From Gekko japonicus (Eukaryota), in the NCBI RefSeq assembly GCF_001447785.1, contig NW_015167064.1:667619-731618 (forward strand): DNA of 64,000 nucleotides, written 5' to 3'. The translations under genes were made by a program, and so were the position numbers. The notes under the pieces are model-generated. The model was not told where the DNA came from and did not search any database. It saw only the letters and a list, made by a program, of their open reading frames with translations. Shown here piece after piece: positions 11,045 through 57,331 of this stretch (the first letter of the stretch is position 1; every line of letters starts with the position of its first letter).

Positions 11045-12058
11045 GCCCCCGCCAACCCAGCGGTTCAAAAGTAACACAAGTAGATAAATGGGTACCTGCC
11101 CTAGGTGGCAGGGGGCACCCTCCTCCGGGTCTGTGCCAGGAGTGCGGTCGATGGTGGCAGAGGCAACAGGCGGGGCGGAGCGGCGAGAGCAATGGCAGCG
11201 GAGCAGCAGCGATTCCAGGAGACGGCGACCAATTTGAGCGGAGGCGGAGCCGGATGACGCAGCGACGAGGGGACGCAGCACGGCAGGAGCCCGATGGGAC
11301 GCATAGCCGGAAGCTGCACCCCGGAGCAACTGCGCATCAATGGAAGTCACCAGAGCCTGCCCAGCAGTCATCCGGATCGTCAAAGAACAATGAGGCCTGC
11401 CGAAGAAAGAAAGATATGCTGCATGGGTGCTGGTAGGGAATCCCACCCCCGTGGAAAAATTGTGACCCTAGCTAGGTATTCAGCTACGCAAGTAGTTCAC
11501 TGTAAACCGCTCTGAGACCCATTAGGGGTCATGAGCAGTATAGAAATCAAAATATATGATCTATAGATGGTACATGACACCTAAGAAAATAGCAAATATG
11601 AACCAGAATATGTCTAGCAAATGTTGGAAATGTAAAAAACATGAGGGTTCATTTTATCACATGTGGTGGACATGTGACAAAGCTAGGGACTTTTGGACAA
11701 AGGTCCACAGCGAAATGCAAAAGATTCTAAAATGTTCTTTCAAGAAAACACCTGAAATTCTGCTATTAGGTTTAAAAATGGAAGAACTGAATATAACAAA
11801 AAGGACTCTGTTCTGGTATTTGATAACAACAGCAAGAATGATATATGCCCAATACTGGAAACAATATTAAGTACTGGATGTTATCCTGAGTTTATCTATG
11901 TGGGACATGAGGGAAATGCATTGCGGGAAGCCTTTCGGGGGAGGGAGGGAAAAGGGAATATTCAACCAATTGATAAAAAGATGTAAAATATGATAATAAT
12001 GGAAAATAAAAAGTCTTTTGACCTAAAAAGAAAAAAGAAAAAAAAAGAAATCGAAATA

Positions 12059-12089
<31 letters not shown>

Positions 12090-12090
12090 A
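11045..12090 (+). mobile_element. Unclassified CpG-rich non-autonomous retroelement: Sauria-SINE-like segment, unknown body and L2-type tail with (AAAT)n; split by an L1 insertion
   Basis: 11049-11110 aligns to the Sauria core in this window (gccaacctagcagttcgaaagc...caagtagataaa..ggtacc). 11500-11555 is an L2-type tail (gtaaaccgctctgagacc...gcagtatagaaatc). The (aaat)n terminus is at 12061-12090. Confidence 0.65.
11556..12045 (+). mobile_element. L1-clade LINE 3' fragment (ORF2 CCHC zinc-knuckle region, 3' UTR, poly-A)
   Basis: ORF 11556-11870 YRWYMTP...KCWKC...GSFYHMWWTC...FW is the L1 ORF2 C-terminal knuckle. aataaa and an A-rich tail lie at about 12005-12045. TSD agaaatc(a/g)aaatata at 11542-11556 and 12046-12060. 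Confidence 0.9.
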
Positions 12091-14433: not shown

Positions 14434-14590
14434 GGTAAAGGTAAAGGTTCCCTTGCTCGAAAGCCAGTCGAGTCCGACTCTAGGGTTGCTGTGCTCATCT
14501 CCGTTTCAAAGCCGAAGAGCCAGCGCTGTCCGAAGACGTTTCTGTGGTCATGTGGCCAGCATGACTAAACACCAAGGCGCACGGAACGCT
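14434..14590 (-). mobile_element. Sauria SINE (Squam1), 5'-truncated
   Basis: (ggtaaa)n tail and gtgctcatctccgtttcaaagccgaagagccagcgctgtccgaagac...catgtggccagcatgact. Confidence 0.9.
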
Positions 14591-19129: not shown

Positions 19130-19655
19130 CACTGATACTAAGTAAGAGATTATTGATCAATCTAGTTCCGGTTGTCTCGAGGGTTCTTACCAAAGAAATG
19201 TCTTTCCAAGTCCTGCTGCCTGAGATCATTTAACTGGCAATGTCAGCAGTCAAACCTGGTAAGATAAAGGTTCCCTTGCTCAAAAGCCAGTCGAATCCGA
19301 CTCTAGGGTTGCGGTGCTCATCTCCGTTTCAAAGCCGAAGAGCCAGCGCTGTCCGAAGACGTTTCCGTGGTCATGTGGCCAGCATGACTAAACATCAAGG
19401 CGCACGGAACGCTGTTCCCTTCCCACCGAAGTGGTACCTCTTTATCTACTTGCAATTTCTTGCTTTCGAACTGCTAGGTTGGCAGGAGCTGGAACTAGAG
19501 ACAGGAGCTCACCCTGTCTTGTGGCACCCGGGTCTTGAACCGCTGAACTACTGACCTTCCACAGCCTGCAGTTCAGCATCTTAACCACTTGAGCCACCGC
19601 AGCTCCTGGTACCTTTCACATAAAAAAGATGTACTCTACTGCTAAGCCATGGTTC
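19130..19655 (-). mobile_element. tRNA-derived SINE with CR1-like tail (Squam2-like), split by a Sauria SINE
   Basis: tttaactggcaatgtcagcagtcaaacctggt|acctttcacat...actctactgctaagccatgg is an antisense B-box/A-box head. Related copies lie at about 49420-49550 and 61565-61975. Confidence 0.6.
19258..19606 (-). mobile_element. Sauria SINE, full length
   Basis: Tail through to tRNA-like head (cttaaccacttgagccaccgcagctcc); short TSD tggta. Confidence 0.93.
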
Positions 19656-20293: not shown

Positions 20294-20566
20294 TTTGGTG
20301 TCGTGGTTAAGTGTGTGGGCTCTTCTGGGAGAATCGGGTGTCATTCCCCACTCCTCCACTTGCAGCTGCTGGATGACCTTGGGCAAACTATAGTTCTGTT
20401 AGAGCTGTTCTCTCAAGGACAGTTCTGGAAAGAGCTCTCTCAGCCCCACCTACCTCACAGGGTGTCTCTTGTGGGGAGGGGAAGGGAAAGGAGTTTGTAA
20501 ACCACTCTGAGACTCCGTGGGGTATAAATCCAATCTCCTCCTCCACCACCACCTCCTCCTCCTTCT
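20294..20566 (+). mobile_element. Squam3-type SINE
   Basis: tttggtgtcgtggttaag head, ctctcagccccacctacctcacagggtg core, (CCT)n-like tail. Confidence 0.9.
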
Positions 20567-24621: not shown

Positions 24622-24972
24622 ATAGTAAAGGTAAAGGTTCCCTTGCTCGAAAGCCAGTCGAATCTGACTCTAGGGTTGCGGTGCTCATCTCTGTTTCAAA
24701 GCCAAAGAGCCAGCGCTGTCCGAAGACGTTTCTGTGGTCATGTGGTCGGCATGACTAAACATCAAGGCGCACGGAACGCTATTACCTTCCTACCGAAGTG
24801 GTACCTATTTATCTACTTGAATTTCTTGCTTTCAAACTGCTAGGTTGGCAGGAGCTGGAACTAGAGATGGGAGCGCACTCCATCATGCGGCACCTGGGTC
24901 TCAAACTGCTGAACTACTGACCTTCCACAGCCTGCAGTTCAGCGTCTTAACCACTTGAGCCACCGCAGCTCC
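24622..24972 (-). mobile_element. Sauria SINE, full length
   Basis: Full body with 11-bp TSD taatacattat (24611-24621, 24973-24983). Confidence 0.95.
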
Positions 24973-27210: not shown

Positions 27211-27557
27211 CAGTAAAGGTAAAGGTTTCCCTTGCTTGAAAGCCAGTCAAATCCAACTCTAGGGGGCGGTGCTCATCTCTGTTTCCAAGCTGAAGAGCCA
27301 GTGCTGTCCAAAGACGTTTCCGTGGTCATGTGGCTGGCATGACTAAATGCCGAGGCACACGGAATGCTGTTACCTTCTCACTGAAGCGGTACCTATTTAT
27401 CTACTTGCAGTTTCTTGCTTTCGAACTACTAGGTTGGCAGGAGCTGAGGCCAGAGACGGGAGCTCACTCTGTCACGCGGCGCTAGGGTCTTGAACTGCCG
27501 AACTACAGACCTTCCAGTCTGCAGCTCAGCATTTTAACCTTTAAGCCACCGTGGCCC
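27211..27557 (-). mobile_element. Sauria SINE, full length
   Basis: Complete body; TSD cagtaata. Confidence 0.92.
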
Positions 27558-31235: not shown

Positions 31236-32263
31236 ACAGCATAGTGTGATGTAGTATGAGGCTGCAGTGATACAGCTTCTGGTATGTTCTGTTCTGATAC
31301 AGAAAGTAGGATTATTAAGAAATGTCTTTAAATTGGAAGGAGGCGTCTCCTTCCTTCACCATTCTTTTTATTGACAGAGTACCACTGGTGATTATCATGT
31401 ACCAATACACATGTGTGTGTTATATATTTATGTGTGTGTTCTGTGTATATAAACATGTGTGTTTATATGTGTGTCTGTGTGTAGGTATGTGTATTATTTG
31501 ATTTTTTATATGTGTGTGTGGTTAGCTTGATCAGCCATTGTCCAAAATAGCATTAACCAGTTCCAGGCAATGCAGACACAAATTCCTTTCATTCATCAAC
31601 AGATAAGGAGTTTTGACAGCTCTCCCTCGGGAGCAAGGAGTGAGTGGGCGTGGGATGAAAGGAGAGATTACACCATAGGAAGGCAAATAGAACATAAAGG
31701 AGCCAAAGAAGGAAGCAAGAAAGCTTTGGGGCTGGTTGGGCAGACAGGGAGACTGCTATCAGAATTAAACAAGACACAATCCAGATCCCCTTTCCATTCC
31801 CCTACCTGTTTCTTCTCAATGTCACAATTGGTGTACACACTGATACAAAACATGCCCAACAAGTATTCCAGTAACTCTTTGGGACCACCAGGGCAAAACT
31901 ATGAAAAAGAAAACCCCAAGCAGGCTTTGACACTTAACCAAGGCAACATGCCAAGATTCTAACATCTGGAAAAAGATTCTAGAAGAAAATAATCATTTCC
32001 AGGGCTGGGATTTTAACTCTTTGTATGTCTTCTAAATATCCAGGTAAATATGCTCAGAATAATGCCGTTTTAGCAGAACTTAAAATGTCTGCCAGCTCCA
32101 AGGGAACCAAATTAGGGAAGAAACATTCAGCAAGCATTTGGTGAATTCAAAAGGACACTGGGACAGTCTTTCTGATTTATCACACTGAAAAGCAGGTTTA
32201 GGCAGGTTACCAGTCAAGGTATGCCTTCCTATGCAATCCTAGAATAAGCTCCAATGATCTAAA

Positions 32264-32546
32264 AGCCAGTTTGGTGTAGTGGTTAAGTGTGCGGACTCTA
32301 ATCTGGGAGAACCAGGTTTGATTCCCCACTCCTCCACTTGCACCTGCTGATGTGACCTTGGGTCAGTCACAAGCTCTGGCACAGCTGTTCCTGAAAGAGC
32401 AGTTTGGGTCAGAGTTCTCTCAGCCCCACCTACCTCACAGGGTGTCTGTTGTGGGGAGGGGAAGGGAAAGGAGTTTGTAAACCGCTCTGAGACTCCAAGT
32501 GAAGGGTGGGGTATAAATCCAATCTCTTCTTCTTCTTCTTCTTCTT
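32264..32546 (+). mobile_element. Squam3-type SINE, full length
   Basis: agccagtttggtgtagtggttaag (A box), ggtttgattccc (B box), CORE, (CTT)n tail. Confidence 0.93.
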
Positions 32547-36226: not shown

Positions 36227-36521
36227 GCCAGTTTGGTGTAGAGGTCAAGTGCGTGGACTCTAATCTGGGAGAACCAGGGGTTTGATTCCCCACTCCTCCA
36301 CTTGCACCTGGCTGGATGACCTTGGGCAAGCCGTAGCTCTGATAAGAGCTGTCCTTGAAAAAGAGCAGTTTCTGTCAAGAGCTCTCTCAGCCCCACCTAC
36401 CTCACAGGGTGTCTGTTGTGGGGAGGGAAAGGGAAAGGAGTTTGTAAGCCGCTCTGAGACACCTTTGGGCAGTGAAGGGTGGGGTATAAATCCAATCTCT
36501 TCTTCTTCTTCTTCTTCTTCT
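36227..36521 (+). mobile_element. Squam3-type SINE inserted in a CR1 tail remnant
   Basis: Full SINE; flanks aagaacataagaag | catcataccagtggtcagtcttgtccagcatcctg join into a CR1 3' end. Confidence 0.92.
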
Positions 36522-44197: not shown

Positions 44198-44750
44198 AAC
44201 AAAGTTTGAGTCCAGTGGCACCTTTCAAAGCAACAACGTTTTATTCAGAGTCAGTTTGGTGTAGTGGTTAAGTGCGCAGACTCTAATCTGGGAGAAATGG
44301 GTTTGATTCCCCACTCCTCTACTTGCACCTGGCTGGATGACCTTGGCCAAGTCATAGTTCTGATAAGAGCTGTTCTTGAAAAAGAGCAGTTTCTGTCAAG
44401 AGCTCTCTCAGCCCCACCTACCTCATAGGGTGTCTGTTGTGGGTAGGGGAAGAGAAAAGGAGTTTGTAAGCCACTCTGAGACACCTTTGGGTAATGAAGG
44501 GTGGGGTATAAACCCAATCTCCTCCTCCTCCTCCTTCTCCTTCTTCTCCTTCTCCTCCTCCTCCTCCTCCTCCTTCTTTTTCTTGGTATGAGCCTTCATA
44601 TGCATGCACATTTCTTCAGATACATTGAAATCTGAAGACGTGTATGTGCACACAAAAGCTTGTACCATGAATAAAACTTTGTTGGTCTTCAAGGTGCCAC
44701 TGGACTCAAACTTTGTTCTACTGCTTCAAACCAACACAGCTACCCACCTG
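44198..44750. mobile_element. Penelope-like element: inverted pseudo-LTR pair with decayed hammerhead cores
   Basis: Arms aacaaagtttgagtccagtggcacct... and ...aggtgccactggactcaaactttgtt are reverse complements. 10-bp TSD aatgcataaa at 44188-44197 and 44751-44760. CTGAAGA cores at 44632-44638 (+) and 44613-44619 (-). Confidence 0.8.
44247..44584 (+). mobile_element. Squam3-type SINE nested in the Penelope element
   Basis: Full SINE with (CCT/CTT)n tail splitting ttattc|...|ggtatgag. Confidence 0.92.
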
Positions 44751-52697: not shown

Positions 52698-52997
52698 GGA
52701 GCCCGTTCGGTGTAGTGGTTAAGTGTGTGGACTCTAATCTGGGAGAACCAGGTTTGATTCCCCACTCCTCCACTTGCACCTGCTGAATGACCTTGGGCAA
52801 GCCATAGTTCTGGCACAGCTGTCCTTGAAAAAGAGCAGTTTCTGTCAGAGCTCTCTCAGCCCCACCTACCTCACAGGGTGTCTGCTGTGGGGCGGGGAAG
52901 GGAAAGGAGCTTATAAGCCACTCTGAGACTCCTTTGGGTAGTGAAGGGTGGGGTATAAATCCAATCTCCTCCTCCTCCTCCTCCTCTTCTTCTTCTT
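52698..52997 (+). mobile_element. Squam3-type SINE
   Basis: Full head, CORE and tail. Confidence 0.92.
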
Positions 52998-57040: not shown

Positions 57041-57331
57041 AGAAGAGAGAAGAAGAGAAGAGATTGGATTTATACCCCACCCTTCACTACCCAAAGGTGT
57101 CTCAGAGTGGCTTACAAACTCCTTTCCCTTCCCCTCCCCACAACAGACACCCTGTGAGGTAGGTGGGGCTGAGAGAGCTCTTGACAGAAACTGCTCTTTT
57201 TTCAAGAACAGCTCTTATCAGAACTACAGCTTGCCCAAGGTCATCCAGCCAGGTGCAAGTGGAGGAGTTGGGAATCAAACCCGGTTCTCCCAGATTAGAG
57301 TCCGCACACTTAACCACGACACCAAACTGGC
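57041..57331 (-). mobile_element. Squam3-type SINE
   Basis: Reverse complement of the 36227-36521 type. Confidence 0.92.

Follow-up and report, generated by a model that had tools for sequence, protein, structure and literature searches.

How does a remnant of a Sauria-type SINE come to stand in front of CpG-rich sequence and an L2-type tail? This question is raised by positions 11045-12090 of a 64,000-nucleotide stretch of Gekko japonicus DNA, which was analysed as a whole and is called the window here. A preliminary description offered two answers: a 5′-truncated copy of a young non-autonomous family with the Sauria core and an L2-type tail, or a LINE that has lost its interior and whose 5′ UTR is related to the Sauria body. 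The first is borne out by linked modules, a tRNA-like head, the lack of a conserved ORF and an L2-type end. We propose, with a probability of about 0.83, that the locus belongs to a dispersed SINE-like family composed of a tRNA-like head, a Sauria-type core and an L2-type end, which is likely transcribed by RNA polymerase III, likely copied by L2 and likely split from Sauria by an old exchange.

The window copy and its dispersed relatives

The locus is a 5′-truncated copy of a dispersed repeat of 580-740 bp with the 3′ fragment of an L1 nested in its tail (Table 1). Over 56-57 columns, positions 11045-11096 are 75-77% identical to three Sauria-type SINEs found elsewhere in the window (E 1e-5 to 4e-5). 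The Sauria match claimed before for 11049-11110 is real, but the Sauria-like stretch stops at 11096; that the element then leaves the Sauria path and lacks a Sauria 3′ half, as already noticed, was confirmed by comparison with the Sauria copies of the window. The CpG counts per 100 bp across 11101-11400 are 8, 12 and 5, and the observed/expected ratio of CpG in the window is 0.22. The unrecognised stretch behind the core is indeed CpG-rich, but of its formerly assumed 400 bp only about 300 bp (11121-11424) are variable body and the rest is a conserved 3′ block. The L1 piece is likewise a true insertion of 489 bp (11557-12045): the 15 bp before it (11542-11556) recur behind it (12046-12060) with a single mismatch. 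The range first given for the L1, 11556-12060, takes in the second copy of this duplication. The open frame of the fragment resembles the C-terminus of LINE-1 ORF2 (residues 1110-1184, E 1.2e-4), and a zf-RVT match in this frame (E 0.002) stays under the Pfam cut-off. Two DNA contig sets, whose contigs tend to end at repeats, showed no junction that would mark an empty allele at this locus.

Table 1. Features of the repeat copy and of the nested L1 fragment, in positions of the window.
Feature	Position	Strand	Remark
Sauria-shared core remnant	11045..11096	+	copy starts near position 113 of a complete element and lacks the head
Conserved post-core hairpin and G-run block	11097..11120	+	hairpin covaries across subfamilies
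Variable CpG-rich, T-poor body, subfamily-specific	11121..11424	+	CpG counts, body comparison
Family-specific conserved 3′ block and short variable hairpin	11425..11500	+	without match among the examined LINE 3′ UTRs
L2-type terminal stem-loop region, LINE-derived end	11501..11556	+	11542-11556 is at the same time the left-hand duplicate made by the L1 insertion
Later L1 3′ fragment, 5′-truncated (ORF2 C-terminus, 3′ UTR, A-rich tail)	11557..12045	+	
L1 target-site duplication, second copy, 15 bp, one mismatch	12046..12060	+	
Tail repeat (TAAA)n ending the SINE, 8.2 units	12058..12090	+	

The window contains further SINEs. Sauria-type elements lie at 19256-19606, 24628-24972 and 27216-27551 (minus strand) in full and at 14438-14590 in 5′-truncated form; they are 8-15% apart, and the three full copies carry short target duplications. 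Squam3-like elements, about 270 bp each, were seen in six places, at 20294-20543, 32241-32540, 36227-36513, 44249-44533, 52700-52980 and 57048-57331, together with fragments. At least five of the six end in (CTT)n or (CTC)n, and a (CTT)n-tailed Squam3 has been described (PMC7983390; articles are cited by PMC number and stand here for excerpts of their text). The (CTT)n tails fit a lizard host that is likely a gekkonid gecko.

A search of the genome with the body only gave 553 candidates. The 40 that were scored are all dispersed over many contigs, and their flanks revealed a common start about 112 bp upstream of the truncation point of the window copy as well as the same tail. Exact matches to a family-specific core 19-mer numbered 3,183, to a head 22-mer 163 and to a tail 26-mer 103, with none for the reversed controls. 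Starting from the head (30 of the 163 matches) the 3′ block of the family was reached within 1 kb in 28 of 30 loci, starting from the core (first 30 of 3,183) in 27 of 30, and two of the five misses run into N gaps. A Sauria 3′ half on the same strand occurred in one of these 60 loci, positioned behind the family tail. In the tail-first sample (first 30 of 103 matches, two of these loci being one local duplicate) the body was found upstream in 27 and core or head was reached in 16. Here 12 copies extended to the head and four to the core only, 11 were truncated within the body, and three consisted of the last 47-101 bp.

The three modules, whose co-occurrence elsewhere the preliminary description had left to be checked, are thus linked genome-wide. 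Unlinked modules, which it had named as the outcome that would speak against a family, are contradicted by the linkage at nearly all sampled loci. That a Sauria fragment, a CpG island and an L2 tail met at this locus by accident, an idea suggested by nothing but the repeat density of the window, can be set aside because of this linkage; moreover, the window copy and the family majority sequence are 92% identical over 527 columns.

The exact core motif is present in 26 of 30 heads, and the core is missing from 14 of the 30 tail-first copies, so that 3,183 represents a floor and the family would comprise several thousand copies. Loci unrelated to the family contained 4 heads in 394 kb, but a density based on so few is too noisy to use and may also be skewed by L2 neighbourhoods. 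From 106 distinct core-bearing copies we obtained 67 of full length without gaps, measuring 579-736 bp and arranged as tRNA-like head, about 80 bp shared with Sauria, CpG-rich body of 280-400 bp, 3′ block, and L2-type end of about 55 bp. In size (below 1 kb), dispersal, non-tandem arrangement and copy number (at least 100) the family agrees with what SINEBase asks of a SINE (PMC3531059).

Some individual copies deviate. Three (L035, G000:C8354; L078, G000:C2765; L098, G000:C43) carry internal deletions which join the head directly to the late body or the tail; they may reflect single template jumps or define small subfamilies. Two others, L004 and L006, have identical 5′ flanks on different contigs, that is, a segmental duplication or assembly redundancy.

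Head, core and L2-type end

An A-like box was found in 61 of the 67 full copies and a strict B box in 48, so the tRNA-like head that the preliminary description proposed to look for in longer copies does exist. Among 19 tRNA-like sequences of this genome, a set smaller than the full tRNA complement, tRNA-Leu matched the head best with 56-61% identity, which none of 200 shuffles equalled. The top values were 56/92 = 61% (L015) and 58% (L175), the SINEBase threshold being 60% over 60 nt. ARAGORN reported a tRNA in none of six family loci, and Rfam models of tRNA, ribozymes and structured RNA gave nothing relevant in four copies at E up to 5-10. Likenesses of the element to a 7SL/Alu head and to an HDV-like ribozyme, which were also considered, are unsupported. 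A different and very abundant SINE in the genome (L130-L150; 451,162 candidates) has a head scoring as intact tRNA-Ala in both Rfam and ARAGORN, and would inflate tRNA gene counts.

The boxes, together with the lack of T4 runs in the sense strand, are the argument that the family is likely transcribed by RNA polymerase III, in which case the transcript would start from the tRNA-like head. TTTT is missing from the sense strand of all 56 elements with defined module borders (11 of the 67 were left out). It is also missing from 33 representatives, where 4.3 occurrences were expected, and their bodies contain 4 TTT and 121 AAA. This fits polymerase III read-through, though the copies are related. 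In three RNA runs, reads occurred on both strands, 62-86% of them continued into other sequence, and neither starts nor ends piled up. No conserved ORF exists among the 33 representatives, in which the frame from the core ATG runs over 5-147 codons; a coding body was therefore ruled out, and the check for LINE ORFs in longer copies, also suggested at the outset, returned none that is conserved.

Homology to Sauria is firm over approximately positions 88-165, with 75-83% identity over 63-82 columns to the window copies. The head has a mean z of 4.7 against tRNA-Leu, 2.5-3.7 against Sauria heads and 0.6 against Squam3; because it scores equally well or better against tRNA-Leu than against Sauria heads, only the core is regarded as firmly common. 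The predicted fold of the 5′ part, analysed in the family plus three Sauria rows, shows double changes in 11 of 27 pairs, and 0 of 500 shuffles reach its score, a control which ignores relatedness while some of the changes separate only Sauria from the family. Covariation of the terminal stem within the family is weak (one of nine pairs; score matched by 37 of 500 shuffles).

In a tree of the 5′ parts (unrooted, midpoint drawing, no outgroup) the 33 representatives form one group and the three Sauria rows stand apart. The split therefore predates all sampled subfamilies. An old template switch or recombination right behind the core may have parted the lineage from Sauria, and everything downstream of the core would have been exchanged at this point. 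The separate grouping of all 33 representatives, and 5′ parts as deeply diverse as 71-89% identity between subfamilies, would also suit the reverse order of events, in which an L2-tailed ancestor came first and the Sauria SINEs then gained their RTE/Bov-B 3′ half. We consider this order unlikely, as Sauria SINEs occur broadly among lizards and snakes (PMC13295347) and the present family is known here from one genome; the tree, moreover, has no outgroup to orient it. Sauria insertions occur in two family copies: in L182 (~900-1500, G000:C17) with an unusually long flanking duplication of about 70 bp, and in the 3′ block of L275. Sauria was therefore active after these subfamilies.

Compared with two LINE 3′ ends, seven family ends reached z values of 3.7-11.4, against -0.7 to 0.9 with the Sauria end; with the end of a Squam3-like copy of the window they reached 4.8-9.3. 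The assignment of the tail to the L2 type, as in Squam3, is supported, with the LINE-end match spanning only about 45-65 columns at 70-79%. LINEs with such an end terminate in a stem-loop and (TAAA)n, amount to 87,132 candidates in the genome, and include one with an open ORF of 1,005 aa containing endonuclease and reverse transcriptase domains. From their protein motifs we take these LINEs to be L2. The name stands on these motifs and on the resemblance to the end of the Squam3-like copy, which is assigned to L2 in the excerpted PMC7983390, rather than on a reference tree.

L2-type LINEs that are nearly complete and have one long ORF were seen at L329, L332, L335, L336, L342, L345 and L346. 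They carry 1.2-1.9 kb of CpG-rich, repeat-containing 5′ sequence, which differs strongly by lineage and has no obvious ORF1. Family copies lie inside or adjoining L2 copies at L091, L197 and L257, possibly by target preference or just by L2 abundance. A LINE with exactly the family end was not found among 90 loci selected by the stem; L2 ORF2 pieces lay upstream in five, all at least 600 bp off. The search for such an exact-end partner by three stem patterns yielded family members (29 of 30) and no LINE body.

Target duplications of at least 10 bp were detected in 2 of the 67 full copies and in 5 of the 335 pairings that served as control; at 6 bp or longer, the counts were 12 of 67 and 35 of 335. 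The earlier proposal to test whether the modules recur together with target duplications thus gave linkage of the modules, but no excess of duplications of at least 10 bp. The terminal stem-loop, the (TAAA)n, the 5′ truncations and the few target duplications are the reasons to regard mobilisation by an L2 reverse transcriptase as likely. The L2 ORF2 protein would recognise the terminal stem-loop, and 5′ truncation would be frequent.

Body and subfamilies

Across the 33 representatives the 5′ part has a median identity of 78% and the 3′ part one of 68%, but the body reaches only 55%, where shuffled bodies give 49%. The bodies are near saturation while the ends stay alike across subfamilies. 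Among 61 copies with defined modules, a sample enriched for diversity by the search patterns and with a body border that included the post-core hairpin, bodies fall into 40, 31 and 27 clusters at 15, 20 and 25% distance. Thirteen clusters of two to six members have non-CpG distances of 0.6-4.9% within and 5-32% between them. The values within are partly circular as members were grouped by similarity, and the two members of one pair, separated by 1.4 kb, may have arisen by local duplication.

At least a dozen subfamilies are similarly young, and the small distances within many of them are an argument that numerous source copies were probably active at about the same time. The subfamily of the window copy has a pairwise non-CpG distance of about 3%. 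The attribute "young" given to the family before is accordingly valid for this subfamily, but the lineage as such is old and highly branched. Selection might hold the RNA fold of the ends, whereas the body would drift freely or be pushed to change in many source copies in parallel. Numerous subfamilies of similar youth whose bodies hardly align offer a test case for host silencing as a driver of SINE cargo turnover.

Scans of the body for functional elements gave little. A CTCF-like site at one mismatch is contained in 9 of 56 bodies, compared with 6.3 in shuffles (maximum 10), which is no enrichment. Such motifs were noted in the bodies of some older subfamilies (L270, L271, L274 and L289). 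CCAAT and GC boxes are not enriched in the bodies either. Blocks complementary to each other exist around the body, but they are without double changes, and RNAalifold favours local pairing.

A possible hint towards the origin of the body comes from L2 itself. Six L2 copies have a CpG-rich and G-rich 5′ UTR opening with AGATGGCG; 12 of 33 bodies contain a motif like it, versus 1.3 in shuffles. Local scores between bodies and these UTRs (mean 25.0, maximum 38) lie slightly over those of shuffled (22.9 and 31) and antisense controls (21.1 and 30). The part behind the core could on this basis be an internally deleted, bipartite L2, with the body as a captured L2 5′ UTR and maybe a Pol II promoter. 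This would account for the body without contradicting the SINE reading, and the family would then be a bipartite-L2 SINE, a type missing from the excerpted survey of Kojima 2018 (PMC5786205), where the SINE middles are from RTE and Vingi only. We nevertheless judge it improbable. BLAST of the 67 full copies against 20 long L2 loci gave no match in their CpG-rich UTRs, a body profile (nhmmer) found nothing in L2 5′ UTRs at E up to 10, and common G-rich repeats would yield as much as the slight excess in score. The second answer of the preliminary description, a LINE lacking its interior and carrying a 5′ UTR akin to Sauria, also goes unsupported, as the six L2 5′ UTRs compared provided no alignable match.

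Returning to the SINE reading, it may be extended to an undescribed reptile SINE lineage at the upper end of SINE length. In this extension, a conserved RNA scaffold of Sauria core and L2 end would carry a captured, LINE-promoter-like CpG-rich cargo, which underwent near-complete turnover among dozens of concurrently active source genes, in the manner of LINE 5′ UTRs under host silencing. We offer this as speculation that is rather unlikely to hold in full. The few thousand CpG-island-like inserts are of practical relevance, since consensus-based annotation would split or miss them, and the insertions could serve as low-homoplasy markers for lizard phylogeny.

Comparison with known systems

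RepeatMasker presumably has a class label for tRNA-Sauria-L2 SINEs. With thousands of copies, the family should be caught by repeat-finding pipelines, and it is quite possible, if slightly less so than the contrary, that Repbase, Dfam or SINEBase already lists it under another name. Neither "tRNA-Sauria" nor the label had a main-text match in the articles searched, and the three squamate SINE families of PMC10702118 measure about 190-350 nt against 579-736 bp here. A description of such a family was not found in the literature searched, which included excerpts of PMC7116210, PMC3899998 and PMC7805219.

Sauria/Squam1 is a close relative. The likeness consists in the core of about 80 bp (75-83% identity), in a head of tRNA-like type that has A and B boxes, in a 5′ end predicted to pair with the core in the same way, and in a compensated core helix. 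In contrast to Sauria/Squam1, the family lacks the Bov-B-derived 3′ half and the (ACCTTT)n, has an L2-type end with (TAAA)n instead, is about twice as long, contains an extra variable body of 280-400 bp, and has a head which matches those of Sauria at a mean z of 2.5-3.7 only. Long target duplications are not in excess, whereas Sauria SINEs have target duplications (PMC13295347). SINEBase separates families that differ in their LINE-derived region or by a long insertion (PMC3531059), and under this definition the repeat is distinct from Sauria/Squam1. With an RTE end in Sauria and an L2 end here on one core, and with compensated pairings, both provide a natural experiment on the role that a SINE central domain plays apart from the partner LINE.

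The family is not Squam3 either. Squam3 is tRNA-derived and, like the present family, ends in an L2-type 3′ terminus; its subfamilies A and C possess (TAAA)n, and target duplications of Squam3 occur at a very low rate (PMC7983390). But Squam3 is 217-271 nt long with a CORE fragment (PMC7983390), compared with 579-736 bp here, its head is unrelated (mean z 0.6), and it has neither the Sauria core nor the long body; the Squam3-like copies of the window match the family in the last motif only. Among lizard SINEs, Anolis SINE 2 is also paired in a published table with a LINE 2 element, Anolis LINE 2 (PMC3747384); it is known by a table entry, and the excerpt contains nothing on a Sauria core or a long body. 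The MetaSINE domain, for which the consulted part of PMC4824008 names no reptile member, was set apart by description and not by sequence.

Exchange of tails between SINEs and LINEs is already known, and the architecture reported here represents a new example and not a new principle. ERE4B, IdioSINE2 and WALLSI2 (PMC5786205), and Ther-2 compared with Mar-1 (PMC3531059), are tail-replaced SINEs that combine a common head or core with another LINE-derived end by module exchange. In the gecko family, by contrast, the Sauria core is the common module, the new end is of L2 type, and a long hypervariable body is placed between them.
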